Origin: Candidatus Omnitrophota bacterium
GTDB lineage: Bacteria > Omnitrophota > Gorgyraeia > Gorgyraeales > Gorgyraeaceae
Direction of reading: 5' to 3'
Length of the DNA stretch: 64,000 nucleotides
Assembly (NCBI GenBank): GCA_026387235.1
Contig: JAPLMD010000026.1
Coordinates: forward strand, 973-64,972
Shown here: positions 1-18,685 of the stretch, one piece after another
Layout of the letters: the number at the start of each line of letters is the position of its first letter
Numbering within the stretch: position 1 is the stretch's first letter
Position numbers and translations under genes: made by a program
Notes under the pieces: model-generated
Database searches by the model: none
Told to the model about the DNA's origin: nothing
What the model saw: only the letters and a program-made list of their open reading frames with translations

Positions 1-544
1 GATAATCGTCGTATTTAAGCCCCATGCCCCCCAATATTATAATATCCACTTCCGCCTGCATCGCGATGCGGGCCAAAAGTTCATTGTAAGGCTCTCCTGG
101 CACTGAAAATATCGGAAGCTTCTGCGACTCTACGAGTGAATTAAATACATCTATCATTGGGATGCCGGTGCGGATCATTTTTCTGGGGATAATCCTCTTC
201 GCCGGGTTCACCGAAGGCCCGCCTATCTCCACCATGTTCTCTTCAAGCTTCGGCCCGTTATCCCTGGGAAGGCCGGCCCCGTTAAACAAGCGGCCCATGA
301 GATTTTCCGTAAACGAAACTCTCATGGGATGCCCCAAAAATCTTATTTTATCTCCCGTAGAGATGCCGCGGCTGCCGGCGAATACCTGCAGATACACCCT
401 CTCTCCGTCTATCCTTATCACCTGCGCCAGGGATTTTCCCGCCCCGGAATAAATCTCAGCCAGGTCGCTGTAACCAATGTCTCCCGCCTCAACGGTAATT
501 ACGTTGCCGGCTATCTGAATTATGCGGTTATATATTTTTTGCAT
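1..544 (-). CDS. atpB: V-type ATP synthase subunit B (second copy), 3'-truncated by window edge. The start at 544 overlaps the stop of the upstream A gene by about 25 nt.
   Basis: Manual reverse translation of 1-544 gives [22 protein letters not shown]...[22 protein letters not shown]...[16 protein letters not shown]...[23 protein letters not shown]. This is a typical V/A-type B-subunit N-terminus, located directly downstream of an A subunit. It is not in the ORF track because it runs off the window. Confidence 0.8.
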
Positions 545-2253
545 ATTTCTTTTACCTGGTTTTCCTTTTTGTAAAACCCGTCCGACTGCCACTCGGACGA
601 ATTCCATTCGATAAATACCTGCCTCAGGCCCTGGAAAAATTTTCTGGCGGAGTCCTTATCTTTGAAATTAAATCCGGATTCCATGATCCCATGCAGCGCG
701 TGAAACACGTATTTCTGCCTTTCTTCAATCGTGGCCGCGTCCACTTCGTCAAACGCATTCTGCTGGAGATACACGTCGTCTATAAACTCGCCTTTAAGGT
801 AAATCGCGAAATCCGAAAGAGATGTGCCTTCTTCTCCCACGACCTTCATCATCTGCTTCACTTCATAGCTCCTTCGTAAAACAGCCTGGGCCTTTTTTAT
901 TTCTTTCTCGTCTATGAAACTAGCGTATTTGCTCCAGCTCTCAAGAGGGTCTATCGCGGGATATCTTCTGGCGTCTGATCTTTCGCGCGAAAGCCCGTGA
1001 AACGCGCCTACGACTTTTAATGTGGCTTGCGTGACAGGCTCTTCAAAGTTTCCTCCGGCCGGGCTCACTGTGCCGCCTATCGTAACAGAGCCTGAACTTC
1101 CGTCGTGTAATCTTACCAGGCCCGCCCTTTCATAAAATGAGGCGATCCTATTTTCAAGATACGCGGGAAACGCTTCTTCTCCCGGAATTTCTTCAAGTCT
1201 TCCTGACATCTCGCGCATTGCCTGCGCCCATCTGGAAGTGGAATCAGCGAGCAGAAGCGCATTTAGTCCCATCTGGCGGTAATACTCAGCAATGGTAACG
1301 GCTGTATAAACGCTTGATTCCCTGGCGCTCACCGGCATCGAGCTGGTGTTGCAGATAATAACAGTCCGCTCTATCAGGCTTTTCTTTGTCCTGGGATCTA
1401 CAAGATGCGGGAATTCCCTCAATGTCTCTACAACCTCGCCTGCCCTTTCTCCGCACGCCGCTATGATAACTATGTCGACTTCCGCGTGTTTGCTTATTAA
1501 CTGCTGCAAAACTGTTTTTCCCGAACCAAAAGGCCCTGGTATGCAGTATGTCCCGCCCAAGGCGACCGGCATGAGCGTATCAATAATCCTGATTTTTGTA
1601 GTCAATGGTTTTACAGGCCTTAATTTTTCGGCAAAGCATGCTATGGGCACTTTTACAGGCCAGGACTGAGACATAGTAACAGGATAAATATTTCCGTTCT
1701 CGTCTTTCAGCTCCGCTATCAAGTGTTTTATGTTATACCTGCCTTTACCGGCTATCTTCGCTACTTCAACCTGGCCTTTTAAGATAAACGGCGCCATGAT
1801 CCAGTGCTCAAAAATACCTTCGGCCGTAAATCCTAATTTTTCTCCGGGTTTTATTTTCTGGCCGATTTTAGCGGCCGGCGTAAATTCCCATTCTTTTTTA
1901 GCGTCCAGCGCTTCCAAGTATAATCCTCTTTTTAAGAAAAACCCTGTCTTTTCGGCTAATTGCGGCAATGGATTCTGCAGGCCGTCGAATATCTGGCCCA
2001 ATAGCCCGGGCCCCAGTTCTACGGAAAGAAGCTCGCCTGTAAATTCCACTCTTTCTCCGAGCTTGAGGCCTTTCGTATCTTCATATATCTGGAGTTCAGC
2101 GACATTGCCCCTGACGCGTATCACTTCTGACTTAAGGCGCTCTTCATTATGCGCGATAAAAGCGACTTCATTCTGCATGACATGGTCTTTAAACTCGACC
2201 GTTGCCATGTTCCCGTTTATGCCGGTTAGTATCCCGATTCTTTCCGCGTTCAT
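520..2253 (-). CDS. atpA: V-type ATP synthase catalytic subunit A (copy 2, diverged paralog of 5904-7667)
   Basis: 577 aa. Walker A-like motif GPFGSGKT. A-subunit signature blocks are present ([45 protein letters not shown]). It is followed by a B subunit. Confidence 0.9.
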
Positions 2254-2750
2254 GTTTTTCCTGTCAATCCTTCTAAAATTTTCATGCCATCGCCTGAATT
2301 AATCCTGTCCCATCTCTCTAATATCTGAAGCTGTAAACCGTATGCCGCAAGATATTCCGTGTCGAAATAATGGCCGGATTTGATCTCTTCTATCTTCTCC
2401 CATCTTATCTTATCCAGATACATTTCCGCGTCCATGGGCGAATGTTGATTCACTGCCCAGTGCGCCAAAGGCGCGATAAAAGGATCAATGCCCTCGCTGC
2501 CGCGTAAATAACTATTCGGATCTTTGCCTTTTTTAACAGCCCTTGTTCTTGCGAGTTCGTTTCTGAGGCCTGTGTCAAAAATCTTCCATTTTTTCAGCAA
2601 AGGGTTTTTATCCTCTTTTAAAGCGCCCATTTCATCCTGGCTCAATTGCCGGCCGCACTCTTCAAGAAAATCCGAATAAGAGAACGCCGGCTTCATGCCG
2701 AAATGAAGCATAGGTAAACTTGCGATTAAATAATAGTAACTATTTTTCAT
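2250..2750 (-). CDS. Hypothetical protein sitting in the conserved E-x-A slot of Chlamydia/Treponema-type V-ATPase operons
   Basis: 166 aa with no recognisable catalytic motif. Its stop overlaps the atpA start (ATGA). The position between subunit E and subunit A matches the uncharacterised gene found there in chlamydial and spirochaetal V-ATPase operons. Confidence 0.4.
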   Translation of the reverse strand: MKNSYYYLIASLPMLHFGMKPAFSYSDFLEECGRQLSQDEMGALKEDKNPLLKKWKIFDTGLRNELARTRAVKKGKDPNSYLRGSEGIDPFIAPLAHWAVNQHSPMDAEMYLDKIRWEKIEEIKSGHYFDTEYLAAYGLQLQILERWDRINSGDGMKILEGLTGKT

Positions 2751-3349
2751 TTTATTACTTTAGCTAATTCCGGATTAAGATATACGCACAAAGTTTCCAG
2801 CAATCCTTCATCGCTGAAATCAAAATATGATTTGCCTTTATCAAAACTTATGGAAAATCCTGCGTTTATATTTGCCGACGGCCTGAATTCCACGCCGGCC
2901 TTGATCCTGTCCTTTAATTTAGACATGACAGAGTCTTTTATTTTTTCCAGGTCTTCTTTTTTTACCAGCACTTTTATGTCGCCTGCCTGGCTGTTTTTAT
3001 CAATATATTTATCTATCAGGCCTGCCAGTATGCCTGTCATCTCTTCATTGGACAGGGCCTTATTTATCTCGCCTGCTATAATCTTATTTAATATATTTTT
3101 TATATCTTCTTTCAAGGAAAGCAAAAGATCCCTGGATGCATGTTTTACGCTGAGATCGGCATTCGCTTTGGTTTTCTCAGCCTCAACCTTAGCCTTCTGA
3201 ACAATCTCATCAGCAAGTTTCTTGGCGTTTTCCAGTATCTTCCCTGCGTCTACCCTGGCCTTATCTTCTATGGCCCTGGCCTTTTCCTCCGCTGATTTTA
3301 TCCCTTCCTGGTTTATTTTTTCAAGAAGATCTTTTAAATTTTCTGACAT
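2747..3349 (-). CDS. atpE: V-type ATP synthase subunit E (copy 2)
   Basis: 200 aa. Lys/Glu/Ala-rich N-terminal coiled coil (EEKARAIEDKARVDAGKILENAKKLADEIVQKAKVEAEK) plus C-terminal globular part. Operon context. Confidence 0.7.
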   Translation of the reverse strand: MSENLKDLLEKINQEGIKSAEEKARAIEDKARVDAGKILENAKKLADEIVQKAKVEAEKTKANADLSVKHASRDLLLSLKEDIKNILNKIIAGEINKALSNEEMTGILAGLIDKYIDKNSQAGDIKVLVKKEDLEKIKDSVMSKLKDRIKAGVEFRPSANINAGFSISFDKGKSYFDFSDEGLLETLCVYLNPELAKVIK

Positions 3350-3354
3350 AATTC

Positions 3355-3425
3355 ACCTCTATTCTTCTCGACTTCGCTCGAAGAATATTGTTCGAGCGAT
3401 CCGCCGCAGGCGGAGAGTCGAGAAC
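3355..3425. repeat. Small hairpin-forming repeat element, copy 1 (intergenic between usp stop and atpE' start)
   Basis: attcttctcgacttcgctcgaagaata...tgttcgagc...gagtcgagaact is shared with 57003-57070. Arms are imperfectly inverted (TTCTTCTCGACTTCG / CGAAGxCGAGAAGAA). An internal palindrome ccgccgcaggcgg is present. Confidence 0.6.
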
Positions 3426-3432
3426 TCAGGTA

Positions 3433-3909
3433 TTATACTAACTCTTTATACAGCCTCTCTGCTTCTTGGGGATTTTTGAGTATTACTACAGGGCACGGAG
3501 ATTCTCTGAATATCCTTTCTCCCTCGCTGTAAAGCGCCTCTTTCCAGGACAAAACCTCTTTTAGATCTCCCATAACCAGCAGATCAGCCCCTAGTTCTCT
3601 TGCCTTGCCGGCTATTTCGCTATGAACCTCTCCCTTTAAAATCAAGTGTTCAAATTCCACTTTTTTATTTTCCGCCAAGGTTTTAACCCTTTGCATGAAA
3701 AGCCTGGACTGCTGTTCCATGTCTATCTCGTATTCCTTTGCCTCTATCTCCACAAATACCCTGCTTTTCAATAACTCCTGTATCGCGTTTTCGTCTATAA
3801 CATAAACGGCAATCAATTTTACCTGAAGAAGCTTCGCGAGATATATCGCGTACTTCGCGGTAATTATAGAAGCCGGCCCGCCTGCGAGCGGGGTAATAAT
3901 CTGCTTCAT
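3433..3909 (-). CDS. Universal stress protein (UspA family)
   Basis: 158 aa. Usp-type alpha/beta fold motifs (LIAVYVID..., GADLLVMGD...). Located between the two V-ATPase gene sets. Confidence 0.65.
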   Translation of the reverse strand: MKQIITPLAGGPASIITAKYAIYLAKLLQVKLIAVYVIDENAIQELLKSRVFVEIEAKEYEIDMEQQSRLFMQRVKTLAENKKVEFEHLILKGEVHSEIAGKARELGADLLVMGDLKEVLSWKEALYSEGERIFRESPCPVVILKNPQEAERLYKELV

Positions 3910-4523
3910 TACCTTATCCTTTCCTTTATAATCTTCAGCATTGAAAACGCTTCTCTTGAATCTTCGTCAAGCCTGTCGTTTATATATTTCACGCTGTCTT
4001 CATAAAAAGGCAGGTATATCTTTTCAAGGGCATTTACCTTTCTTATTGTTTTCTGGACCTCTTTGGCAATCCTGATAAGAGCTATCTTTTTTTCCGCAAG
4101 CTGGGTTATCAGCTTCAGGACTTCTTTGAACCTTATTATAACTTCATCCACATGAAAACTTACTTCATACGTGCTATAGTACGGAGGGTTTTCCTTTACG
4201 TTCATGTTTATTATAGGCAAGCTTACGCCCATGACTCTTCTTTCGGTAATAGAAAGGTTTGTTTTTATGTCTATTGAAAAACTCAATTCTTCTAATCTTT
4301 TTCTGCCCATTATGACAATGGTTTTATCTACGAGCCCATACGCGCTCTGCATGGCAGCATCCACCTCGCGCTGGAGCTTGTCCACGATATGGACGATAGA
4401 AGTCAGTTCATTTATAAGAATCCTTCTTTTCTCGTCTAAAAGATCGTGGCCTTCTCTTGTGAGAGACAATAGCTTCTTGGACTTTAAAAGATTTGTTTTT
4501 GTGGCGGCAATATTAATTTTCAT
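3909..4523 (-). CDS. atpD: V-type ATP synthase subunit D
   Basis: 204 aa. N-terminus [36 protein letters not shown] matches the subunit D consensus (..PTRMELL.LK.RL..A..GH.LL..KR..L). Follows subunit B. Confidence 0.85.
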
Positions 4524-5902
4524 TGTTTTTTCTTATAGTGCTTTTTCAAATCTTCTTCGCGTATCCTCACCAGCTCTTCCGCAGGAAGAGATGATACAAT
4601 ATCCCATCCCAGATCCAGCCCGTCTTCCATGGTCCTGCGCTCCATATGCCCCTGGCTCAGGAATTTTTTCTCAAAATCTTCTCCGAATTTCAGATAAAGT
4701 TTATCCAGGCTGGAAAGCTCTTCTTCTCCTATGATCGACGCGAGCGCCCTGACATCTTTCACGTGGGCGTAGCACGCGAATAACTGCGAAGCCAAAGGCG
4801 GATGATCGTCTCTGGTGAGGCCTTTTCCTATATTATCTTTCATGAGCCTTGACAGAGACGGAAGCCCTGCTATGGGAGGATATATCCCTCTATTGTACAT
4901 CTCTCTCTCGAGAACAATCTGGCCTTCAGTAATGTAGCCCGTGAGGTCAGGTATAGGATGAGTGATGTCGTCGTTAGGCATTGTGAGAATAGGAATCTGC
5001 GTTATAGAGCCTTTGATCCCTTTTATCATACCTGCTCTTTCGTATATGCTCGCCAGGTCGCTATAAAGGTACCCTGGATAGCCTTTTCTAGCCGGTATCT
5101 CGCCTCTTATCGTGGAAACCTCTCTCAACGCCTCGCAATAATTCGACATGTCTGTCATAATTACAAGGACGTGCATGTTTTTCTTGAACGCCAGGTATTC
5201 CGCGCAGGTCAATGCCAGCCTGGGGGTTAAAAGCCTTTCTGTTGACGGGCTGTCAGCCAGGCTCAAAAATATCGCTACCCTTTCAAGGACCCCTGATTCT
5301 TCGAAACTTTTTTGGAAAAATCTCGCCGTATCGTATTTAACTCCCATGGCCACGAAAATGACGCAGAAGTTTTCTCCCTTGACCTGCGACTGGCGCGCGA
5401 TCTGCGTGCCGAGAAGGTCGTGCGGCAGGCCGCTTCCTGAAAATATCGGAAGCTTCTGGCCTCTCACGAGCGTATTCATGACGTCTATTGAAGAAATGCC
5501 TGTCTCTATGATGTTCTCGGGATAATTTCTTGAAACAGGATTTATCGCCAGGCCGTTCACGTTTACCATTTCATCGTACACAGGCCTTGGCATGCCGTCC
5601 AGAGGATTGCCCAGGCCGTCAAAAACCCTGCCCAGGACATCTTCAGACACTCCCATTAAAAGCGGCTTTTCTTTAAAATTCACCCTGCAATTTTTTATAG
5701 CCAGGCCGCTTGTGCCTCCCAGGACTTCCACGATCGCGAAACCTTTGCCGACCTCAAGCGTAATCCCCGGCCTGGACCTGCCTTCGTCATCGACTATCTC
5801 CACAATCTCGTTATATCCTACGTTGTGGATATTGCGTATGATAAAAATAGGCCCTGTTATTTCTTCCAGTCCGACATATTCCCTTAGATTATATTCTTTC
5901 AT
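4520..5902 (-). CDS. atpB: V-type ATP synthase subunit B
   Basis: 460 aa. Non-catalytic P-loop remnant. Conserved [11 protein letters not shown] and [17 protein letters not shown] blocks. Stop/start coupling with A (5902/5904). Confidence 0.9.
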
Positions 5903-5903
5903 A

Positions 5904-7667
5904 TCAAAACTCCAATCCTTCGAGAGAGCTTTCTACTTCGGAAGGCAGCCCGGCTAATTTATCCATGTCTTCTTTTGACTCTGAATATTTAAACCTCATC
6001 CTTATAAGCTCCTGATAAATCTGGCTCTCTTTTATCTCGCTTATATTCATGCCTTTTTTAATAAGCCCGTCGCTTTTCTCGTAAAACTTGATTATGGATT
6101 TCAACATCAGAAATTGTTTGCGGCTCGAGGAATACGCGTCGATATCATCAAAAGCGCTCTGCTGCAGAAACGTATTCTTGAATATGGTGCACGTCTCAAG
6201 TATCAGCCTCTGCCTGTGGGGCAATATATCAGGCCCTACAAGCTTCACAACCTGGAGAAGCCTTTGCTCTTTCTGTAAAAGCTCCATTATGGCGTATCTC
6301 ATAGAAAGCCAGTCTTTATCTACATTTTTATGCCACCAGCCTTTCACGTCGTCCAGATATTCTGAATAGCTGTCTATCCAGCTTATAGAAGGATAATGCC
6401 TTGCGTTTGCGAGGTCCCTGTCGAGCGCCCAGAAACAGCGTATAAATCTCTTTGTGTGCGACGTAACAGGCTCTGAAAAATCTCCGCCCGGAGGAGAAAC
6501 AGAAGCGATAATCGTAATAGAGCCGTTTTCATTATTAAGGGTAGTGATTTTGCCTGCCCTTTCATAGAATTCAGCGAGCCTTGAAGGGAGATACGCCGGA
6601 AATCCTTCTTCAAGAGGCATCTCTTCCAGCCTTCCTGAAAGCTCTCTCAGCGCCTCTGCCCATCTTGAAGTAGAATCAGCCATAAGCGCTACGCTATAAC
6701 CCATGTCCCTGTAATATTCCGCGAGCGTAATACCCGTATAGATGCTGGCTTCTCTCGCCGCAACAGGCATGTTGGAAGTATTTGCTATGAATATGGTCCT
6801 TTCCATGATAGGCCTTTTAGTAACGGGATCGATAAGCTTCGGGAAATTTAAAAGAATATCCGTCATCTCGTTTCCTCTTTCCCCGCAGCCCACGTATATG
6901 ACTATATCCGCATTGCTCCACTTGGCAATCTGATGCTGGATAACAGTCTTGCCTGTCCCGAATCCTCCGGGCACGACAACGCATCCGCCCTTCGCGACAG
7001 GGAACAGCGTATCAATAACTCTCTGGCCGGTAATAAGAGGCTCGTCTACGGGAACCCTTTCTCCGTAAGGCCTGGGACGCCTGACAGGCCACTTTTGATA
7101 CATGAAAATTTCTTTTTCAGAATCCTTTTCTACTAATACCGCGATTTTTTCTTCTAAAGAATATTCGCCTCCCGCAGCAATCCATTTAATCTTTCCATGG
7201 GCATCCGGCGGAACTAAAATCTTGTGTTTTATCAAATTGGTTTCCTGAACTGCTCCTATAACTTCTCCCCGCTTTATATAATCGCCTTCTTTTTTCAAAG
7301 GCTCGAAATGCCATTTCTTTTTCCTGTCCAGGGCAGTGACGTGAACGCCTCTATTGATATAAAAGCCTTCTTTTTCTCTTAATATCTCAAGCGGCCGCTG
7401 TATCCCGTCGTAGATATTTCCCAATAGCCCGGGCCCTAATTCAACGTACAGAGGAAATCCCTGAGTATAGATAATATCTCCTGCTTTAAGAGAAGTAGTA
7501 TCTTCATAAACCTGGATATAGGCCTTGTCGTTTTTTAATCTTACAACCTCTCCGACAAGATGCTCCTGGCCTACCTCCACCATGTCCAGCATCCTTAAGA
7601 AAGTAACCTCTTCCGCTTCAACGACAGGCCCCATTACCCTATACACCTTACCCGCAGCCTTTAACAT
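5904..7667 (-). CDS. atpA: V-type ATP synthase catalytic subunit A (copy 1)
   Basis: 587 aa. Walker A-like motif [26 protein letters not shown] and [27 protein letters not shown] present. Confidence 0.9.
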
Positions 7668-8285
7668 CTAGAACACTCCCTTCAATAAATCCATGTATAT
7701 ATCATCATGCAGCCTTTTAAACCTGGCAGAAAACGTATTATCGTAAATAAGCCTGGAATCCTTTGATTGCACGATTACGCCTATATCCTTAAAATCGCAT
7801 TTTTTAAATTCAAGCGTAACGCCGTTTATATTTTTTATAAAATCCCCTTTTATTATTTTTTCATCGAGCGCTGAATACAGGACATCAACATCTCTCTCTC
7901 CTATAACCTCAACGCCTTCCGATATGGCTTTCTCCAGGAACGCTTTATAACCCTGATCTTTCCTGAATTCCGCGGCTATCTCTCTTACCTTTTCAAGCAC
8001 TGTTTCTATGAATCTGCTTTTTTCTTCCAGAAAAAGTTTTTTCTTTTCAAGATTCAAGGTAGAGAATATTTTTTGCCTCATCTTCTCCACCTCAATATCA
8101 TTTTTTTTAAGAGCTTCTTTCTTTTTATTTTCCGCCTCCTGGTTCGCTTCTTCCAGGATTTTGGATTTTTCTTTCCCGGCTCTTGTAAGTATGGAGCCGG
8201 CCTGAGCGGAAGCGTCTTCTATTATCTTTCTGCAGATTTCTCCCGCATCTTCTATCCTTGCTTTTGAATAAAGAGACTTGTCCAT
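7668..8285 (-). CDS. atpE: V-type ATP synthase subunit E (copy 1)
   Basis: 205 aa. Charged coiled-coil N-terminal half. Operon position between F and A. Confidence 0.7.
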   Translation of the reverse strand: MDKSLYSKARIEDAGEICRKIIEDASAQAGSILTRAGKEKSKILEEANQEAENKKKEALKKNDIEVEKMRQKIFSTLNLEKKKLFLEEKSRFIETVLEKVREIAAEFRKDQGYKAFLEKAISEGVEVIGERDVDVLYSALDEKIIKGDFIKNINGVTLEFKKCDFKDIGVIVQSKDSRLIYDNTFSARFKRLHDDIYMDLLKGVF

Positions 8286-8587
8286 CAGACGCTCACTCCT
8301 ATTATATCCTTCAGATAATCTCCGACGCTTCTCCTCTTAGCAGATCCTCCCCTTGAGGGAAGCTCGAGTATAAGAGGCATCTGGTTCTTGTACATAAGAT
8401 TATCCAGTTCCTGCCTTAAAAATAACGCTGCCTTTTCAGTCACCAGAATCACCCCTGCTTCTTCTGTTGCCAGCGCCACCTTTAAAGCCTCCAAGGCATT
8501 GGAACGGCTGGCAACCTCTCTTGTCTCTACGCCGGCCAGCCTGAAACCAAGGCCTGATTCCTTATCAGCTATGCAGAAAAACGTCAT
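8285..8587 (-). CDS. atpF: V-type ATP synthase subunit F
   Basis: 100 aa. GFRLAGVE...EEAGVILVTEKAA is typical of subunit F. Confidence 0.7.
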   Translation of the reverse strand: MTFFCIADKESGLGFRLAGVETREVASRSNALEALKVALATEEAGVILVTEKAALFLRQELDNLMYKNQMPLILELPSRGGSAKRRSVGDYLKDIIGVSV

Positions 8588-8922
8588 TATATTTTACCCA
8601 GGATCATTATAGCAATGATCAAGCCGTATATCGCGATACCTTCCGCAAGCCCTACGTATATCAGCGCTTTTCCTGCCATCTCCGGTTTCTCGCTTATCGC
8701 GCCTACTGCCGCCGCTCCTACGTGCGCCACTGCAATGCCTGCCGCAATCGCGCTAAGGCCTGTTGCGATCGATGCCGCTAAAAATGCCCATCCGACTATT
8801 GCCGGATCAGTTGCAGCCTGCTGCGCCTGCGCCCAAGCAGAACCGCAAAAAGAGATAAATAGAAAAAATATACAAAGCTTTACAACGCGCCACGACCATC
8901 TTATAATACGCTCCATGCCCAC
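8587..8922 (-). CDS. atpK: V-type ATP synthase proteolipid subunit K/c. Single hairpin with a signal-peptide-like N-terminal extension. The true start may be internal.
   Basis: C-terminal 75 aa form two TM helices with the conserved ion-binding Glu (GLAEGIAIYGLIIAIMILGKI). N-terminal 35 aa resemble a cleavable signal (LCIFFLFISFCGSAWA/QAQ). Confidence 0.75.
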   Translation of the reverse strand: MGMERIIRWSWRVVKLCIFFLFISFCGSAWAQAQQAATDPAIVGWAFLAASIATGLSAIAAGIAVAHVGAAAVGAISEKPEMAGKALIYVGLAEGIAIYGLIIAIMILGKI

Positions 8923-8925
8923 CTC

Positions 8926-10827
8926 CTAAATTTTGACCGGTTTATAAATCTCTTTGCCTGCCATGAAAAACTTTGAGAAAAACTCATAATAGTTCAGCCT
9001 CAGGGATTGTATGGTCACCACAAGCCCTTCTAGAAAAATTATAAGTATATTTCCTAAAATAACAACTAAAAAAGATAAAACCGCGCCGCCCGCGTCATTT
9101 ACGATCCGCGAGAGTTCGAATATAGCGATGAACAACCCCGCGTGCGCCAGCGCAAACGCGGCTATACGTATAAAGGATACTGTGTTCGCCAGATAGCTCA
9201 TGCCTACTTCCAGGATATCTATAGTGCTCTCCATGAGCGCTACCGGAATATTTTGTTTCTTTTTTTTAAAAATAGCCTCTATAAAAGGCTTCAGGAAAAG
9301 CAGGGTAACCCCGGCCGATATAATAGCGAAATAAATATTTATGCCCTGGGTTTTAGACATGGCCATTTTAGTAAAAAGCCCTATAGCTGACCAGTAGATA
9401 ATCCCGCCTATAAGGCCTGATTTGTCAAAAAGCGCTTTCAGATAATCCTTGTCCCTCATGGCATTTATTATATTTATCAGGATCCCGAGGCTTATAAAAC
9501 CCACGCCGAACATGATGCTAACTCTGAAAATCTCCATGATGTTCTCTATGGGCTTTATCCATAAAGAACGAAACTCTATCCCGAAAAAACTCCCGTAGAG
9601 CGCGCCGAATATGATCGAGCTTATCCCGCAGTATAGTAAAAGCGCGGATGCCTGCCTGACCTTTTCATTTTTACTAATTTTCAAAAACAGGCTCCCCAGG
9701 GACAATACAAGCCCGTGCCCTATGTCTCCGAACATGGCGCCGAACATGACGAGAAAGCCTATCGCGACGAATATCGTAGGATCAATGGTCCCATACCGCG
9801 GTATGCCGTAAGAATCTATTAATAATTCAAACGGCTTGAAAAACGCGTTATGCCTGAATCTCACCGGTATCTCTTCCTTCGGTATGTTCACTTCTTCCGC
9901 GTTCTTTGATTCAATGTAAGAGATTTTATCTATTCTTTTTATTTCTCTCACGACGTTTTCCTTTTCCTCCTTCGGGACCCAGCCTGAAAGAAGAACAGTT
10001 TTATCCGTTGTGCACAAATATTTTTTTGCCTCTAAAAGAGATTTTTTAAGCTTTATCAGGGATTGCATGCAGGACAAATCATCCCGGCGGCTTTCCCCTA
10101 CTTTTTTTATCTGATCTTGTACATCCTGGAGTTTCTTTTTTATGGCGCCTATTTCGCCTGACAACTTCCCTTCCACATCTTTGGAAATATCTTCCGTGTG
10201 CTTCGGAAATTCCATCTTTTCCCAAGCGATGTCCTTTAAAACCCTGTCTATAAAAACCCTGTCGCGCCTCAGCCCTATGAATAAAGCCGTGATCCTGTCG
10301 CCTTCTTTTTTAAAAGGATAAAATATATACGGGATATCCTTCAGGCTCCTTTCTAAAACTGAAATATTCTTCTCAACCGCCTTGCCCAGGGAAACCTCTA
10401 AAAAACTATACACCGATTCTCTTTTTAAAGAAAACAGCGGATAGGCTTTCAACTGCGAGAAGATGGAGTTTTTATTCTGCAGTTCTGAATCCAGCTCCTC
10501 TTTCTGGGCAAAAAAACGGGCTGCGTCATCCTCGATTCCGGTAAGTGTTTTTTTGATGTCATCGCAGGAAAAAGCCTTTATATCCTTGGCCGGCATAGGA
10601 GAAATGCCCAGCTTTTTTAAATTATCTCTTAATCTGGAGTCCAGCTCATCCCACTCAACGTATTCCTTGTCTATCTCATAAGGAGACAGCTCTCTCAGCT
10701 CATCCTCTATGTGACGTATATCAACCGGGTGAAATATCCCGAGTTTTAAAAGGTGATAGGTTACATCCTCTATCTTTTCTTTTAAAACAACCATGCTCAC
10801 TAATTCCATGCTTGATGCGGTCAGCAT
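8926..10827 (-). CDS. atpI: V-type ATP synthase subunit I (a-subunit)
   Basis: 633 aa. Cytoplasmic N-terminal half followed by a polytopic C-terminal half with the conserved ...RIAAFALAHAGLF... arginine helix. Confidence 0.8.
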   Translation of the reverse strand: MLTASSMELVSMVVLKEKIEDVTYHLLKLGIFHPVDIRHIEDELRELSPYEIDKEYVEWDELDSRLRDNLKKLGISPMPAKDIKAFSCDDIKKTLTGIEDDAARFFAQKEELDSELQNKNSIFSQLKAYPLFSLKRESVYSFLEVSLGKAVEKNISVLERSLKDIPYIFYPFKKEGDRITALFIGLRRDRVFIDRVLKDIAWEKMEFPKHTEDISKDVEGKLSGEIGAIKKKLQDVQDQIKKVGESRRDDLSCMQSLIKLKKSLLEAKKYLCTTDKTVLLSGWVPKEEKENVVREIKRIDKISYIESKNAEEVNIPKEEIPVRFRHNAFFKPFELLIDSYGIPRYGTIDPTIFVAIGFLVMFGAMFGDIGHGLVLSLGSLFLKISKNEKVRQASALLLYCGISSIIFGALYGSFFGIEFRSLWIKPIENIMEIFRVSIMFGVGFISLGILINIINAMRDKDYLKALFDKSGLIGGIIYWSAIGLFTKMAMSKTQGINIYFAIISAGVTLLFLKPFIEAIFKKKKQNIPVALMESTIDILEVGMSYLANTVSFIRIAAFALAHAGLFIAIFELSRIVNDAGGAVLSFLVVILGNILIIFLEGLVVTIQSLRLNYYEFFSKFFMAGKEIYKPVKI

Positions 10828-11867
10828 ATATTTAACAGGTTATTTGTCTCGTCCCTTTTCCAGCCAAAATTTTTGGCGTATAAAAGAGAAATAATATTTT
10901 TCGTCTCATTTCTCTTCAACATCACATATCCAAGGATCGCGCCTATTGTAAAAGGATATCCGGAAAGGGCTCTCTTGACTTCTTTCAACAAGACCTCATG
11001 AAGGAAATTTTCTATAAGGGACATGTTTTCTTCTATAAGCTCTCTGACTTTGGCGTACGGGCCTAGCGCTACGCTATCCACGATCTTTGTAAGCCCGTCA
11101 GTCGTATAAAGGCTCGCGACGTTCTCTTTATTAATCCTCGCTCCGCCCGGAATCATCCATTCCAGGATATCGCCGGCTGCCAGGCTGTAATACTTCCTCA
11201 TCCTTATGAGCCAGTTTATGTTTTCGGTATCTATCTCTATGCCTATGACCCTTCTAGCTATCTCTTGATCGCGGGGAGAAAGCGATTCCGCGCAGGAAAG
11301 AATCCTCTGGCAATAATCAATATCCAAGCTGGCTTCCAGATAAAAAACAGATCCTTTTTCTTTGAATCTGTCCCGAGCGCGTAAAATAGGTTTTCTGTAA
11401 GGCGTGTCGTCCAGAAGAAGTATTATTTCCTCTATATTGGGAGCGTACATGATTTTTTTATAGTCTATATCAAAACTTATCTTCTCTCCTAAAATAAAAT
11501 CATCGGCGTTAACCGGTGTTTTTTTATTCCATATCCTCAATGCCGTCTTTAACTGTTCAAGCTCATACTTTTCTATAAAAAGGCTCATGAGTTCTTTTTC
11601 TGTTTTTCCCGGAGCGGATCTATATATCCTTCTGTATATACCCAAGTCATTTTTTATGAACAGCTTTTCGATAATCCTGAGATCCGTGATTTCTTTGGGG
11701 ATGCTTTCTATTGCGGCTTTATGATACGGCGATTCCTTTAACAGCTCCATGGCCTTATAAACATCTTCCGCCTCCAGCATCCTGGAAAATAAATCCGGGC
11801 TTATCAGGAATGAGATCATGGCCCTTATCTTGGCGTTGATAAAAGAATACGTGGCGAGTTCTCGCAT
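10821..11867 (-). CDS. atpC: V-type ATP synthase subunit C (d-subunit)
   Basis: 348 aa. N-terminus YSFINAKIRAMISFLIS matches the subunit C/d consensus (Y.Y.NARVRAM...L). Operon context. Confidence 0.7.
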   Translation of the reverse strand: MRELATYSFINAKIRAMISFLISPDLFSRMLEAEDVYKAMELLKESPYHKAAIESIPKEITDLRIIEKLFIKNDLGIYRRIYRSAPGKTEKELMSLFIEKYELEQLKTALRIWNKKTPVNADDFILGEKISFDIDYKKIMYAPNIEEIILLLDDTPYRKPILRARDRFKEKGSVFYLEASLDIDYCQRILSCAESLSPRDQEIARRVIGIEIDTENINWLIRMRKYYSLAAGDILEWMIPGGARINKENVASLYTTDGLTKIVDSVALGPYAKVRELIEENMSLIENFLHEVLLKEVKRALSGYPFTIGAILGYVMLKRNETKNIISLLYAKNFGWKRDETNNLLNIC

Positions 11868-11869
11868 AT

Positions 11870-12187
11870 CTAATCTTCTATGGTTATTATCCGAGAGAAA
11901 ATCTTCTTGGAAACCTCGGAGATGTCCTTGTCTTTTCTCTCTTTAATGGCAAGGGTTTCTTCCCTGACTGCTTTAAGAACATTTTCTTTTTCAGACATAA
12001 ATCTTTTTTCTGATTTTTCTTTTTCTTTATGGCTGGAATCGTCTGCTTCTATAGCTGCTCTGTCTATTATATTTTCTTTTTCTTTTTTAGCGTCTCTCGC
12101 GATGCGCTCGGCCTCTTCTTTTGCGTCCTGAAGTATCTTACCGGCCCTTTCCTCTTCCTTCAGAATCTTTTCAATCGCGTCTTTCAT
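11870..12187 (-). CDS. V-type ATP synthase subunit G/H (small coiled-coil stator subunit)
   Basis: 105 aa. Entirely Lys/Glu-rich coiled coil. First gene of the operon, as in Thermus-type atpG. Confidence 0.5.
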   Translation of the reverse strand: MKDAIEKILKEEERAGKILQDAKEEAERIARDAKKEKENIIDRAAIEADDSSHKEKEKSEKRFMSEKENVLKAVREETLAIKERKDKDISEVSKKIFSRIITIED

Positions 12188-12190
12188 GAT

Positions 12191-12757
12191 TTAGCGGCTC
12201 CCCGGTTTTATTATCTCAACGCCCTTTTTGCATAAAGGGCAATCCTCAGGCTTATAGGCGGGAAAATCAAGCCTTACCAGACTTTTTAATTTTACACCAA
12301 AATCAAGGGTTTTTCCACTTCTATTTACCACGCAGCCCACGCCTATTATCCCGGCGCCTTTTGATCTCACTGCCTCCAATACCTCATTCGTAGAAAGGCC
12401 TGTTGTTATAACATCTTCAACCACAAGGACCCTGTCTTCTTTTTTTAATTCAAAACCTCTCCTTAAGGTCATTTTGCCTTCTACCCGCTCTGTGAATAAA
12501 GATTTTACTCTTAAAGCGCGTCCTGTTTCATAAGAAACTATTATCCCTCCCAGGGCAGGCGCCACTACGCAGGTAGGCAAATCATCTTTAAAATAATCCG
12601 CCAGTTCCCCGCATAATTCTTCAGCTATATCAGGATACTGCAATAAAAGCGCGCACTGAAAATAATTCCCGCTATGAAGCCCGCTCGAAAGCATGAAATG
12701 CCCTTTCAATAAGGCTCCTGTTTCTTCAAATAATTTTAAAATCTCTTGTTCTTTCAA
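12191..12757 (-). CDS. pyrE: Orotate phosphoribosyltransferase. Apparent TTG start with AAGGAG RBS 6 nt upstream.
   Basis: 188 aa. GHF.LSSG.HS.Y and PRPP-binding VLVVEDVITTGLS motifs. Confidence 0.85.
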   Translation of the reverse strand: MKEQEILKLFEETGALLKGHFMLSSGLHSGNYFQCALLLQYPDIAEELCGELADYFKDDLPTCVVAPALGGIIVSYETGRALRVKSLFTERVEGKMTLRRGFELKKEDRVLVVEDVITTGLSTNEVLEAVRSKGAGIIGVGCVVNRSGKTLDFGVKLKSLVRLDFPAYKPEDCPLCKKGVEIIKPGSR

Positions 12758-12768
12758 AAAAACTCCTT

Positions 12769-12824
12769 ACCTTGGTCCACCTGACAGGTGAGCCAAATGG
12801 CTCACCTGTCAGGTGGACCAAGGT
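12769..12824. repeat. Perfect 27-bp-stem palindrome (2-nt loop) between pyrF and pyrE. Copy 1 of a repeated palindromic element.
   Basis: accttggtccacctgacaggtgagcca|atggctcacctgtcaggtggaccaaggt. Every position 12769-12824 pairs with its mirror, as verified by hand. Core GGTCCACCTG(A/C)CAGGTGAGCC recurs at 58386-58436. Confidence 0.8.
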
Positions 12825-12826
12825 TC

Positions 12827-13519
12827 TCAAATTGTTCTAAATGCCTTGACCGGATCTTTGGCCTTTGTAACAGGCCTTCCTATCACAATATAATCCGCGC
12901 CCCGTTCAAACGCTTCTTTGGGAGTCGCTACCCTTTTCTGGTCCCCGGCCTCACTCCCTTCAGGCCTTACGCCAGGCGTAACTATTAAAAAATCTCTTCC
13001 TGTATTTTTTCTTACCGCGATTATTTCCTCCGGGGACGCTACCACGCCGTCTAAACCTGCGTCCCTGGCCAATTTCGCCAGATTCAAAACCTGCTCTTCG
13101 GGCGATTTATTTACTCCGGATCTTTTCAAAGCTTCTCCATCCATGCTGGTAAGGACTGTTACCCCTAAGATCTTCGGCCTTGATATCCCCAGTTTCCCGC
13201 TTTCTTCTTCCGCAGCCTCTACAGCCTTTTTCATCATGCTATCCCCGCCTGACGCGTGCACGTTAAACATAAACACGCCGAACCTGACAGCTGCTTTGCT
13301 GGCGGCATAAACCGTATTCGGGATATCGTGAAATTTCAGGTCCAGAAAAATATCCTTGTCGTATTTTTTGACAAGATCTATCGCTTTCGGCCCGCAGGAA
13401 TAGAATAACTCCATGCCTATTTTAAAAATCTGCGCCTCGGGGCTTAAAATATCCAAAAGCCGCTCTTCTTCTTTAAGGGTATTCACATCCAGCGCTATTA
13501 TAATTCTATCTTTTATCAT
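12827..13519 (-). CDS. pyrF: Orotidine-5'-phosphate decarboxylase
   Basis: 230 aa. IIALD...FKIG...DLKFHDIPNT motifs of OMP decarboxylase. Confidence 0.85.
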   Translation of the reverse strand: MIKDRIIIALDVNTLKEEERLLDILSPEAQIFKIGMELFYSCGPKAIDLVKKYDKDIFLDLKFHDIPNTVYAASKAAVRFGVFMFNVHASGGDSMMKKAVEAAEEESGKLGISRPKILGVTVLTSMDGEALKRSGVNKSPEEQVLNLAKLARDAGLDGVVASPEEIIAVRKNTGRDFLIVTPGVRPEGSEAGDQKRVATPKEAFERGADYIVIGRPVTKAKDPVKAFRTI

Positions 13520-14441
13520 TCAAGCCGCCTACAATGTCTTCGATTTTTTCTATTTTATGCTTCCTTAGATACGCTTCGATACCTTTTACTATTTTCCCGC
13601 ATATACCGGGCTCTACAAAATTAGCAGTGCCTACCTGTATAGCCATAGCGCCTGCCAGCATAAATTCAATAGCGTCATCGCTATTCATTATACCACCTGC
13701 GCCTATAACGGGGATATTAATATTCTTCGAGACTTCATAGACCATTCTCAGGGCTATTGGTTTTATGCATGGCCCGCTCAAACCGCCTGTAATATTGCCG
13801 AGTTTCGGCTTTCTCGCATCTATGTCTATAGCCATTCCCAAAAACGTATTCACCAGGCTTACCGCGTCCGAACCCGCGTTCTCCGCCGCCTCGGCAATCT
13901 CAACTATATCCGTCACATTAGGAGAAAGTTTTGTAATGAGGGCTTTATTCGTTACCTTCCTCACGGCCTTTACAACTTCATACGTTGCTTTAGCATCCTG
14001 CGCTACCAGCCTTTTGCTTTTAAGATTAGGGCACGATATATTCAGCTCTATGCCTCTTATATTCTTTATCTTATCAATCCTTCTGGCAAGAATAAAAAAT
14101 TCGTCTATATTATTCCCGGATATGCTCACTATGATAGGGGCTCCTATTTTAGAGAGATACGGCATTTTTTCCTTTATGAAATCATCTACGCCTTCGTTCT
14201 GAAGCCCTATCGCATTGAGCATCCCGGCTTGGGTCTCGCATATCCTGGGCATAGGATTGCCCTGTTTCGGGTTTAACGTTATGGTCTTCGTAATAATTGC
14301 TCCTATTTCTGCCAAGTTAACCAGTTCTTCGAATTCCTTAGCGTACCCGAACGCGCCTGACGCAGCCATCACAGGATTTTTAAGCCTTATCTTTCCTATC
14401 TTCACTCCCAACATTCCCATTTTTCTTCTCCCGCCATCCAT
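13506..14441 (-). CDS. pyrD: Dihydroorotate dehydrogenase, class 1B catalytic subunit
   Basis: 311 aa. NAIGLQNEG, ELNISCPN and GGI..G.DA motifs of the PyrD TIM barrel. Adjacent to pyrK. Confidence 0.9.
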   Translation of the reverse strand: MDGGRRKMGMLGVKIGKIRLKNPVMAASGAFGYAKEFEELVNLAEIGAIITKTITLNPKQGNPMPRICETQAGMLNAIGLQNEGVDDFIKEKMPYLSKIGAPIIVSISGNNIDEFFILARRIDKIKNIRGIELNISCPNLKSKRLVAQDAKATYEVVKAVRKVTNKALITKLSPNVTDIVEIAEAAENAGSDAVSLVNTFLGMAIDIDARKPKLGNITGGLSGPCIKPIALRMVYEVSKNINIPVIGAGGIMNSDDAIEFMLAGAMAIQVGTANFVEPGICGKIVKGIEAYLRKHKIEKIEDIVGGLNDKR

Positions 14442-14448
14442 TTGAGTT

Positions 14449-15255
14449 TTACCAAATTAACTCGGAGGCGTTAAACACCGGGCCGTCTTTGCAGGCAAGC
14501 TTACTGCCTGATTTCGTTTTGACGACGCACCCGAGGCACGCGCCGATCCCGCAGGCCATCTTTTCCTCTAACGACACCTGGCATTCAAAATTCCTTTCCA
14601 GGCATATATCCGCAATGCATCTGAGCATGCCGTGCGGCCCGCAAACATATACAATAGTTTCAAACTTGCTTTCCGTAGTCTTCAGGATTTTATGGAACAG
14701 CTTCGACACAAAACCCTTGCAGCCATAAGTGCCGTCGTCAGTGGAAACATAAACCTCAGGCGCAGCTTTTTTAAAATCCTTTTCGCATAAAATAAGGCTT
14801 CTTGTTTTCGCGCCTATCAAGACTATTGTTTTTATCTTATTCTTCTTTAGCTCCTCCGCCAGATATACAAGCGGCGCGGCGCCTATGCCGCCGGCAATTA
14901 TAATGGCCCTGGGTTCCAGATTGGAAGTTCCGGGCAGGATAAAACCGTTTCCCAATGGCCCGAGAACATCCACAAATTCTCCGTCTTTTTTCTTAGACAA
15001 AACCTCTGTGCCCTTGCCGACCACCTCATACAGAATCTCTATGCCCCTTTTTACCTTATGTATGCTGAAAGGCCTTCTCAAAAGCGGCTCCGAAGAATCA
15101 CTGCACCTGATCTCCACAAACTGCCCTGGTTTTACAATCCTCGCGATATAAGAGGCGTCGAGATGCATCTTATAATAAGCCGGGCCGACTTTATTATTCG
15201 AGTAGATTTTCGCTTTAATGTCTTTCATGTCAGAATAAATCCAATTGTTTTTCAC
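14449..15255 (-). CDS. pyrK: Dihydroorotate dehydrogenase electron-transfer subunit (FAD / 2Fe-2S)
   Basis: 268 aa. FNR-like FAD/NAD fold with C-terminal Cys cluster (CGPHGML...ACGIGACLGCVV). Confidence 0.85.
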   Translation of the reverse strand: MKNNWIYSDMKDIKAKIYSNNKVGPAYYKMHLDASYIARIVKPGQFVEIRCSDSSEPLLRRPFSIHKVKRGIEILYEVVGKGTEVLSKKKDGEFVDVLGPLGNGFILPGTSNLEPRAIIIAGGIGAAPLVYLAEELKKNKIKTIVLIGAKTRSLILCEKDFKKAAPEVYVSTDDGTYGCKGFVSKLFHKILKTTESKFETIVYVCGPHGMLRCIADICLERNFECQVSLEEKMACGIGACLGCVVKTKSGSKLACKDGPVFNASELIW

Positions 15256-16462
15256 CTGCGGAATCTTTTTCTTTTAATATCTCTATTTCGCCGTATTCCC
15301 CGTCAAAACCAGGCAGAATATTTACATTTCCGTTTCTAACGTTTACGATCGCCTTTGCTATTTTTATCGGCAATTCTTTCAAGAGTTTATCCTCGCTGAC
15401 TTCCATCAATACCTCAAGCTCTGTGCCAAGCCGCGGTATTATAGCGCGGTACTCCGCGCTAACCGCTTTAGAAGCATCGCCTACGCCCAGCGTGTCAGCT
15501 ATTATCTCTGCAAGCGGTATCATTCTTTTATAAGGGATGCTGTTCTCCGGGATAAAACCTTCCGGCCTGTCCGCAAGTTCTAAGACCCTGTTCATAACTC
15601 CTATTGTAAGAGGTTTTCCGCACTTAGGGCAAATATTTTTATTCTTTTTTGTTTCGCCGGGGCTGAGCCTGACATTGCACAAGCGATGGCCGTCGTAGTG
15701 ATACTTGCCCTCTTCAGGAAAAAATTCAATGGTAGATAAAAATTTCTTTTTATCTTTTTTCTTCAATGCGTCCAGTATAGCTTTATAGCTCATCTCAGTA
15801 TCAAATACATTCGCTTCTCTCCCTATTTTCTGAGGGCTGTGAGAATCAGAATTTGATAAGAGGGCGAATCTGTCCAGCTTGCTCCATTGCCAATTCATGC
15901 CGGGGTCTGAAGAAAGCCCTGTCTCCAAGGCGTAAATGTCTTTGGCGTATTCTTCAAAACATTCTTCTATTGAATCAAAACCTGACTTAGAGCCAAAAAG
16001 CGAGAACCAGGGGGTCCATATATGCCCCGGCACCAGAAAGACATCTTTACTGATGCCGAATAAAATCTCTGCCAGGTCTTTAGCGTCAATGCCTATGATA
16101 GGCCTCCCGTCATACGCAATATTCCCATAACCCGAAAGAGTAGAATTTATTTTATCGGCAATATCAAAACTCGGCACAAAAATAACATTATGAATTTTTC
16201 TGACCTTGCCGTTTTTCGAATAGATACTGGATACCTCTCCCGTGAGCATAAAATTCACGCCGTTATATTCAAATAAACCGTTTCCGGAATCTTTCAGGGT
16301 GTTTTTCAATTCTTCAAGCCACAGGTGGTGCGTGAAATCACCTGTGCCCAGCAAAGATATGCCTTTAAGCTTCGCGTATTCCGAAAGCGTCTTTATGTTC
16401 ATGTCAGGGCTTGTGGCGCGGCTGTATTTGGAATGTATGTGGAAATCAGCTATAAACTTCAT
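15230..16462 (-). CDS. PHP-domain protein with C-terminal zinc ribbon, endonuclease Q-like (TIGR00375-type)
   Basis: 410 aa. N-terminal PHP metal site ADFHIHSKYSRATS...GTGDFTHH. C-terminal CPKCGKPLTIGV zinc-finger-like element. Architecture matches the EndoQ family. Confidence 0.5.
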   Translation of the reverse strand: MKFIADFHIHSKYSRATSPDMNIKTLSEYAKLKGISLLGTGDFTHHLWLEELKNTLKDSGNGLFEYNGVNFMLTGEVSSIYSKNGKVRKIHNVIFVPSFDIADKINSTLSGYGNIAYDGRPIIGIDAKDLAEILFGISKDVFLVPGHIWTPWFSLFGSKSGFDSIEECFEEYAKDIYALETGLSSDPGMNWQWSKLDRFALLSNSDSHSPQKIGREANVFDTEMSYKAILDALKKKDKKKFLSTIEFFPEEGKYHYDGHRLCNVRLSPGETKKNKNICPKCGKPLTIGVMNRVLELADRPEGFIPENSIPYKRMIPLAEIIADTLGVGDASKAVSAEYRAIIPRLGTELEVLMEVSEDKLLKELPIKIAKAIVNVRNGNVNILPGFDGEYGEIEILKEKDSAGEKQLDLF

Positions 16463-17733: not shown

Positions 17734-18685
17734 CTTTTTTATCCTTATCCCGCGCCTGAGACACCCAGAATAAAACCGCCATCCTGACAGCTATGCCGTT
17801 AGTAACCTGCTCCAATATAACGGAATTCACGCCGTCCGCAACCTCGCTTGATATTTCAACGCCTCTATTTATCGGCCCGGGGTGCATTACAATAATGCCC
17901 TTCTTGGCCTTTTTCAGCCTCTCTTCTGTGATGCCGAATTTCTTAAAATATTCCAACTGGCTCGGAAACGCCTTCATGTCATCCCGCTCGAACTGCATCC
18001 TTAAAACATTTATGGCGTCTGAGCCGCTAAGCGCCTCATCTATATCGTTAGTAATTTTAACGTTCATATTTTCTATGCCCGGAGGGATCAGAATGCCGGG
18101 CGCGCAGACAGTCACATTGGCCCCGAACTTGGTCAATCCCCATATATTTGAACGCGCGACGCGCGAATGCGCAATGTCGCCCACTATGCTCACGTTCAGG
18201 CCTTCCAGCCTGCCTGTTTTCTTCCTCAAGGTAAACATGTCCAAAAGCGCCTGCGTCGGGTGCTCGTGCCAGCCGTCGCCCGCGTTTATTACGCTTATGC
18301 TTACATTCCGCGCCAGCATGTCAGCAGCGCCGGAACAGTTATGCCTCACCACGATAATATCTGCCTTCAGCGCCTCTATGTTTTTGCCTGTATCATTAAG
18401 CGTTTCTCCTTTTTTTACGCTGGAAGACTCTACTGCAATGTTTATGACATCAGCTGACAGTCTCTTGGCAGCCACTTCAAAGGATACCCTGGTCCTGGTG
18501 GATGGCTCATAAAAAAGATTGACTACTGTTTTACCGCGCAGGGCAGGGACTTTCTTGATCTTTCTATCCAGGATTTCCCTGAAAGATTCAGCCGTGTCTA
18601 AAAGCAGCTCGATGTCCTCTTTTGAAAGATATTCCAACCCCAGGAGGTCCTTATGAACCCATTTTGCTGTTTTCTTCTTTGTCAT
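17717..18685 (-). CDS. pyrB: Aspartate carbamoyltransferase catalytic subunit
   Basis: 322 aa. STRTR carbamoyl-phosphate-binding motif. HP.Q and VMHPGP motifs. Confidence 0.9.

Follow-up and report, generated by a model that had tools for sequence, protein, structure and literature searches.

The 64,000-nucleotide stretch analysed here, in the following called the window, originates from a Candidatus Omnitrophota bacterium (contig JAPLMD010000026.1). According to open reading frame (ORF) calls and Pfam matches, its positions 1-12187 form a single unbroken run of minus-strand genes which comprises two sets of genes for rotary ATPase subunits. We consider it likely, though by no means certain, that these encode two complete and structurally different enzymes, an H+-coupled one which likely acts as ATP synthase (set 1) and a Na+ pump (set 2), and that their tandem layout results from a recent rearrangement.

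By its gene content, set 1 encodes an A/V-type ATPase of the classical nine-subunit kind, accompanied by a co-transcribed gene for a universal stress protein (USP). It starts with a 105-amino-acid (aa) coiled-coil protein (11870..12187), followed by subunits C (d, AC39; 10821..11867, 348 aa, PF01992, E 9e-59), I (a; 8926..10827, 633 aa, PF01496, E 6e-37), K (c, termed K1; 8587..8922, 111 aa, PF00137, E 2e-16), F (8285..8587, 100 aa, PF01990, E 2e-18), E (E1; 7668..8285, 205 aa, PF01991, E 7e-18), the catalytic subunit A (A1; 5904..7667, 587 aa), B (B1; 4520..5902, 460 aa, PF00006, E 5e-77) and D (3909..4523, 204 aa, PF01813, E 7e-47). The matches of D, F, C, I and K all lie above the cut-offs. 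Four Pfam domains are present in A1, among them PF16886 (E 5e-33), which is the A/V-specific barrel-sandwich insert, PF00006 (E 1e-73) and PF22919, and the protein reaches 879 bits against the NCBIfam subfamily PRK04192 (cut-off 470). Within the peripheral stalk E1 passes Pfam, while the 105-aa protein, which gives sub-threshold matches only (ATP-synt_B, vATP-synt_E, V-ATPase_G), was designated G/H-like by virtue of its position and size; in both it resembles b(G) of a Tepidanaerobacter operon (PMC4374699) and the archaeal AhaH of locus L035 (L numbers denote the loci fetched for comparison). Apart from this sub-threshold member, Pfam and the ORF positions fully agree with the original prediction of a complete G-C-I-K-F-E-A-B-D operon at 12187-3909. 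The junctions within set 1, including that to the USP gene (3433..3909, 158 aa, PF00582, E 6e-15), range from -7 to +3 nt. The latter gene had been described as standing between the two sets. While its position is correct, it is no mere separator but the conserved tenth gene of set 1, since its start overlaps the stop of D and since it follows D in every set 1 operon examined (L002, L082, L083, L084/85, L086-L088 and L090/91). Inspected by eye, the C-terminal region of the USP appears to lack the ATP-binding motif G-x2-G-x9-G-S/T.

The 83 nt between the USP gene and set 2 are the sole real gap of the array. Set 2, whose neighbouring genes overlap by 4 to 25 nt, consists within the window of a subunit E-like gene (E2; 2747..3349, 200 aa), a gene for a DUF2764 protein (2250..2750, 166 aa, PF10962, E 3e-14), the catalytic subunit A (A2; 520..2253, 577 aa, four Pfam domains, E 3e-65) and the N-terminal 181 codons of subunit B (B2; 1..544), recognised by Pfam, which starts with the ATG at 544 and runs past the window edge. 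All these reading frames are intact. The series E-hypothetical-A-B at 3349-1 which the original prediction let continue beyond the window is hereby confirmed, the hypothetical protein being the DUF2764 one. The Pfam score of E2 (PF01991, 21.9 bits) lies just under the cut-off, and its match to the NCBIfam model of V-type subunit E (PRK01558, E about 1e-40 to 3e-40) is below the curated one; its orthologue in L002 passes Pfam with 28.8 bits. Exact-protein look-ups gave no extension past position 1 (for A2 only a 2.7-kb Logan contig was obtained), and a protein identical to the DUF2764 protein of the window is present on a 65.5-kb NCBI Omnitrophica contig. The proposed check by extending the contig was hence done via syntenic relatives. 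In terms of genomes, the nearest relatives are the Candidatus Omnitrophota metagenome-assembled genome (MAG) UBA10183 (A2 89% identical) and a Crystal Geyser MAG (87%), and the B2 fragment is 94% identical to B2 of L002. The junction of set 1, USP and set 2 recurs in L002, L082, L086, L087, L090 and L091, in all of which set 2 is complete and goes on as B, D, I and a K subunit (K2) of 153-154 aa. Some set 2 genes of L091 remain uncalled because 82 of its bases are masked as N; with tblastn, A2 and E2 are retrieved intact. L088, whose A1 is 87% identical, possesses the pyrE-set 1-USP side before its contig ends. Of the 80 loci which the genome scan provided, 50 yielded all seven set 2 genes; their order is E-DUF2764-A-B-D-I-K, genes for F, G and C being absent. 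The full operon in syntenic relatives argues for a complete rather than decayed set 2 and rules out a fragmentary pseudo-operon. By gene content and order, set 2 is the seven-gene DUF2764-type V-ATPase known from Bacteroides, Chlamydia and Treponema. No member of this DUF2764 family of V-ATPases has been characterised biochemically or structurally (PMC10790697).

The two enzymes differ in the ion sites of their c subunits, whose inspection for Na+ versus H+ motifs had been suggested along with a possible difference in ion specificity. As a criterion we used the completeness of the ligand set (PMC2359735). K1 consists of a signal-like N-terminal extension and a single hairpin, carries the conserved Glu in its second helix and can be aligned over its full length to the Thermus c subunit. 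At the positions equivalent to Gln110, Thr64 and Gln65 of NtpK, the c subunit of the Enterococcus hirae Na+ pump, it has Val, Gly and Ile; only the Glu and the Tyr are kept. In NtpK the Na+ ligands comprise these three residues, Glu139 and the backbone carbonyl of residue 61. A family alignment reveals the same loss of ligands in all five distinct Omnitrophota K1 sequences, on which ground set 1 was rejected as a candidate Na+-translocating ATPase. K2 matches the NCBIfam equivalog model of V-type K above cut-off. As phmmer with K2 fails to find NtpK, from which it has diverged too far, its residues were read from a MAFFT alignment with NtpK segments which comprises 50 K2 homologues, including those of L002 and L082. 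Each of these 50 proteins shows Thr or Ser at position 64, Gln at 65, Tyr at 68, Gln at 110 and Glu at 139, while position 140 is occupied by Thr in 48 and by Ser in two of them. Likewise, all 50 have four helices with one ion site, the first hairpin lacking a carboxylate. Set 1 is thus predicted to be H+-coupled, since K1 keeps the carboxylate without the Na+ ligands, and set 2 is predicted to be Na+-coupled, since K2, as read from the relatives, holds the full NtpK ligand set. The suggested difference in ion specificity is supported accordingly at the level of ligand residues.

The catalytic subunits A1 and A2 do possess the 587 and 577 residues originally given for them, yet they share 42% identity over 532 residues (41% globally; 408 bits) instead of about 45%. 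Among the A subunits of the PDB, A1 scores 743 bits with that of Pyrococcus horikoshii, 690 with Thermus, 636 with E. hirae NtpA and 587 with yeast Vma1. The corresponding scores of A2 with Pyrococcus, Thermus, Enterococcus and yeast amount to 451, 426, 421 and 379 bits, and A2 is roughly equidistant to all solved A subunits (451 to 369 bits). Its homologues on Treponema, Spirochaetia, Zixibacteriota and Methanomicrobiales contigs are 65-69% identical. The other paired subunits are more distant still: partial alignments between the two sets yield 36% identity for B, 27% for I and 28% for D, and no significant match for E. In a neighbour-joining tree of 73 full-length A subunits, made up of cluster representatives obtained with an A1+A2 profile and of sequences from the fetched loci, an A2 side of 23 members is split from all others in 89 of 100 bootstraps. 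Its named members are Chlamydiia, Bacteroidota (Phaeodactylibacter, Ancylomarina, Sunxiuqinia) and Desulfobacterales, besides the Treponema, Spirochaetia and Zixibacteriota loci. This clade is the "very divergent" A group of Chlamydia, Borrelia, Treponema and Bacteroides discussed in PMC2359735. The nearest neighbours of A1 in the tree are other Omnitrophota, beyond which come Clostridiales-type sequences (Oscillospiraceae/Clostridiales), Lokiarchaeota being found elsewhere on the A1 side. Since A1 is closer to the archaeal, Thermus, Enterococcus and yeast subunits than to A2, and given the 89/100 split, the two are not sister paralogs, and the assumption that no recent duplication is involved holds. 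Their supposed different origin is correct in so far as they belong to different ancient clades; both sets, however, appear long resident in Omnitrophota. At least 120 clusters at 71% identity or more exist in the phylum for A1 and likewise for A2, and by this measure both A types are common across it. As a side observation on the A subunits, many cluster representatives (P0363, P0365 and P0369 among others) are 900-1140 aa long and show two separate matching segments, which would be expected if the A subunit carried an intein, and one A2-type homologue (P0223) has 741 aa.

With respect to the function of the two enzymes, ion use in vivo and direction are what we infer from the architecture of the c subunits. 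With one site per two helices, K1 would confer a high ion-to-ATP ratio and thereby favour ATP synthesis, as in Thermus; it is on account of this high ratio that set 1 is more likely the synthase. With one site per four helices, K2 would halve the ratio, which would suit ATP-driven pumping, as in E. hirae. Set 1 would then be an H+ ATP synthase and set 2 a Na+-extruding ATPase.

As to the history of the tandem layout, the gene next to set 1 at the upstream edge of the array is pyrE (orotate phosphoribosyltransferase; 12191..12757, minus strand; NCBIfam TIGR01367, 219.6 bits versus a cut-off of 150, assigned also by cross-locus synteny). It is the final gene of a pyrimidine cluster at 12191-19221 and is followed, after 3 nt, by set 1, USP and E2. 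We counted the synteny in those 68 E2-bearing loci among L002-L082 which are not cut by a contig end. In 47 of them pyrK-pyrD-pyrF(-pyrE) lies directly upstream of E2 on the same strand, often with a 16-nt overlap with E2. The more distant Omnitrophota loci L083 and L084 (A1 74-78% identical) show the same set 1 order with trailing USP at another site, where a PTS EIIA-like gene comes next. Only contigs with an A2 at least about 89% identical to that of the window have the tandem layout. Pairs of A1 and A2 on contigs of the same size (63806, 34111, 64630 and 190085) appear, among the matches listed, only at 88-91% identity; the pair on 190085, which was read, is the tandem locus L082. A genome harbouring both sets in another layout did not emerge from this comparison. 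In L003 (A2 87% identical), which branches beside the tandem clade with 56% bootstrap, pyrE is directly followed by E2. The simplest reading, and the most likely one, is a relocation of the set 1-USP block to an ancestral pyrE/E2 junction in a recent ancestor, the polarity of which we infer from this distribution.

A comparable neighbourhood is found on MAG contigs of Methanomicrobiales/Methanoregula type which carry a DUF2764-type operon (L035, 8825-21960; L047, 8750-22047; also L024, L026 and L033) and whose set 2 A subunit is 68-70% identical to A2 of the window; L035 is archaeal as judged by AglJ and AhaC. In L035 and L047 the native ahaH-I-K-E-C-F... operon of the archaeon follows shortly downstream of it in the same orientation, and the two are separated by a gene for a two-domain USP which is read in the other direction. 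The Methanomicrobiales case is a second, independent juxtaposition of the two ATPase types, and it implies a cross-domain transfer. One might go further and suppose that the adjacency of a set 2-type and an A/V-type operon with a USP gene in between, having arisen at least twice, is selected rather than accidental, both enzymes forming one regulated module which interconverts H+ and Na+ gradients through ATP. We regard this as rather unlikely.

Several observations weigh against our interpretation. The ion specificities were predicted from ligand residues alone. Moreover, D2, I2 and K2 lie outside the window and were read in relatives whose A2 is 89-94% identical to that of the window, and the source contig (about 65.5 kb) itself probably ends within set 2. 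The tree was calculated by neighbour-joining with a simple distance, and the set 2 clade is known to evolve rapidly and to be difficult to position in trees, as a reviewer remarks in PMC2359735. As the position of L003 as outgroup reaches only 56% bootstrap, it is also conceivable that set 1 was lost from the pyrE/E2 site in L003. The genome may also encode an F-type ATP synthase, Rnf or other Na+ pumps. Finally, the c subunit with which Pyrococcus furiosus synthesises ATP has four helices and a single site, so that the argument from the ion-to-ATP ratio is not decisive. This precedent would equally suit reversed roles, with set 2 as a Na+-driven ATP synthase, fed for example by Rnf, and set 1 as a proton pump for pH homeostasis or for the generation of a proton-motive force. 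Such a reversal, the main rival to our reading, which we consider unlikely but worth keeping in mind, would fit the wider conservation of the set 2 operon in the fetched loci and its synteny, which is fixed phylum-wide, as well as the Omnitrophota class Gorgyraia (including family UBA10183), for whose members acetogenesis and a conserved Rnf complex are predicted (PMC10066038). On the other hand, having only one site in four helices reduces the ion-to-ATP ratio, which on general grounds makes synthesis unfavourable where, as in fermenters, the ion-motive force is low, and K1 with its single hairpin is similar along its entire length to the c subunit of the Thermus synthase. Neither Rnf genes nor other Na+ machinery are present in the window, whose remainder comprises pyrimidine synthesis and a glycan/radical-SAM cluster, and Rnf of this organism need not be Na+-coupled. 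We find it more doubtful still that both enzymes move the same ion in vivo as condition-specific isoforms (stress, pH, growth phase), the Na+ motif of K2 being physiologically meaningless. The USP gene attached to set 1 hints at stress-linked control, and partial Na+ ligand sets do persist in H+ enzymes (PMC2359735). The ligand set of K2, however, is not partial: each of the 50 homologues, which stem from several phyla, has it in full, and such strict conservation argues for function, whereas K1 has lost all but the Glu.

Two further explanations concern the origin of the array rather than the action of its products, and we attribute hardly any probability to either. The two sets could be paralogs from a duplication within Omnitrophota, set 2 having evolved faster; both are indeed widespread in the phylum, and the rapid evolution of the set 2 clade is known. 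Yet A2 is far more similar to its Spirochaete, Zixibacteriota and Methanomicrobiales homologues (65-69%) than to A1 (42%), subunit composition and c-subunit architecture differ between the sets, and the set 2 operon type is shared with Bacteroidota and Chlamydiia, in line with the 89% split of the tree. Just as improbable is an assembly chimera, or a set 2 which is a decaying fragment, as might be suspected from the window ending inside B2 and from the uncalled set 2 genes of L091. The layout recurs, however, in a further seven contigs which differ in sample and assembler, six of them with complete set 2 and the seventh, L088, with the pyrE-set 1-USP side. In addition, the gaps in L091 are masked bases, A2 and E2 being found intact by tblastn, and the reading frames of the window are unbroken.

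The DUF2764 protein of set 2 deserves a closer look. Of the 271 positions of the PF10962 model, the match covers no more than the C-terminal quarter. Since the family is about 176 aa long in 78 loci, the 166 aa found in the window do not represent a truncation. An AlphaFold (AF2) model calculated from 46 sequences is confident and all-helical, with a predicted local distance difference test score (pLDDT) of 87 and a predicted template-modelling score (pTM) of 0.82. Comparison of the DUF2764 family with the subunit C family by hhalign results in a probability of 0.2%. A Foldseek search of the PDB with the model gives no significant match; its top two entries are Thermus subunit d/C (E 0.9 and 2.1, TM-score 0.26). 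Possibly, the protein is a shortened C/d-like rotor adaptor which replaces the C/d socket, although the model provides a hint at most.

The 83-nt spacer between USP and E2 (3350..3432, minus strand) was subjected to folding and an Rfam scan. It is predicted to adopt a very stable three-way hairpin with a minimum free energy of -39.3 kcal/mol (z -5.4) which pairs with the Shine-Dalgarno region of E2. This fold is not conserved in the close relatives L002 and L082, no repeat of it occurs in the window or in the loci fetched by then, and the Rfam scan of positions 1-13000 yielded nothing relevant. A conserved regulator or riboswitch was therefore rejected, the element being absent from both relatives, unmatched in Rfam and present in a single copy; it is specific to the lineage of the window. 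A consensus scan of the spacer revealed no terminator-like site and promoter-like matches near background, a result compatible with joint as well as separate transcription of the two sets. Within the 110 nt upstream of E2, L005, L007, L008, L043 and L082 contain long near-perfect palindromes in the pyr/E2 or USP/E2 spacer. That of L008 has a 22-bp GC-rich stem, and those of L005 and L082 share a similar AAGTTTACAC... arm; otherwise each locus has an element of its own. Terminators or small mobile palindromes may be what these elements represent. Another hairpin, in the pyrF-pyrE spacer of the window (12767-12828), produced two spurious sub-threshold microRNA matches in Rfam and is probably a plain intergenic stem-loop. 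Beyond the pyrimidine genes, at 19392-43142 (minus strand), six paralogs of B12-binding radical SAM proteins and three further radical SAM genes are interleaved with genes for GT2 glycosyltransferases, GDSL lipases, a UDP-galactopyranose mutase, a PMT_2-type transferase and a TPR protein. The same cluster encodes two large proteins of 663 and 813 aa without Pfam match.

Set against known systems, set 2 resembles the type found in Bacteroides fragilis, Porphyromonas, Chlamydia and Treponema in its gene order, the lack of F, G and C, the duplicated K with full NtpK ligands and the clade of its A subunit. B. fragilis possesses the same seven-gene operon, with DUF2764 in second place and a K subunit bearing the Na+ motif, which is uncharacterised (PMC10790697). 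Differing from it, the DUF2764 protein of Omnitrophota is short (166 aa for the one analysed here, about 176 aa in the Omnitrophota-type loci) and corresponds to the last quarter of the model alone, and the partner enzyme is a second A/V-type ATPase instead of the F-type ATPase of B. fragilis. E. hirae NtpK (PDB 2BL2) is like K2 in having four helices, one site and the equivalents of Thr64, Gln65, Gln110 and Glu139, from which a Na+ pump is expected by analogy. The E. hirae ntp operon, however, is of the classical nine-subunit kind, and NtpA scores higher with A1 (636 bits) than it does with A2 (421 bits). Set 1 shares all nine subunits with the H+ V/A-ATP synthase of Thermus thermophilus, to whose c subunit K1 aligns including the N-terminal leader and whose A subunit gives 690 bits with A1. 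Yet the Thermus c subunit keeps the Gln and a Glu-Thr pair where K1 has Val and Glu-Gly, and set 1 carries the extra USP gene. The gene order in Thermus, G-I-L-E-C-F-A-B-D, is likewise unlike that of set 1. Tepidanaerobacter acetatoxydans has two V-type ATP synthase operons and no F-type enzyme, and the order of its operon 1, b(G)-C-I-K-F-E-A-B-D, is exactly that of set 1 (PMC4374699), in keeping with an A1 near Clostridia-type A. Its second operon, in contrast, is a classical nine-gene G-I-K-E-C-F-A-B-D one and not of DUF2764 type, and its two operons are not adjacent. Thaumarchaeota are reported to hold horizontally acquired V-type operons beside or instead of A-type ones, a distribution tied to ion and pH ecology (PMC6863869). 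These archaea differ from Omnitrophota in the operon variants involved and are not known to possess a tandem arrangement of the present kind. The pairing of two rotary ATPases which differ in ion type within a genome is hence already on record for Bacteroides and Tepidanaerobacter, and reportedly for Thaumarchaeota. A survey of Omnitrophota mentions V-type ATPase once and discusses no pair (PMC10066038).

Beyond the diversity of DUF2764, our finding repeats a pattern known from other anaerobes. The additional, diverse DUF2764-family sequences, including the short form, could aid structural and functional work on this family. Omnitrophota, an uncultured phylum of very small cells, gain a concrete bioenergetic trait in the form of a predicted H+-type and a predicted Na+-type rotary ATPase, both of which are widespread among them.

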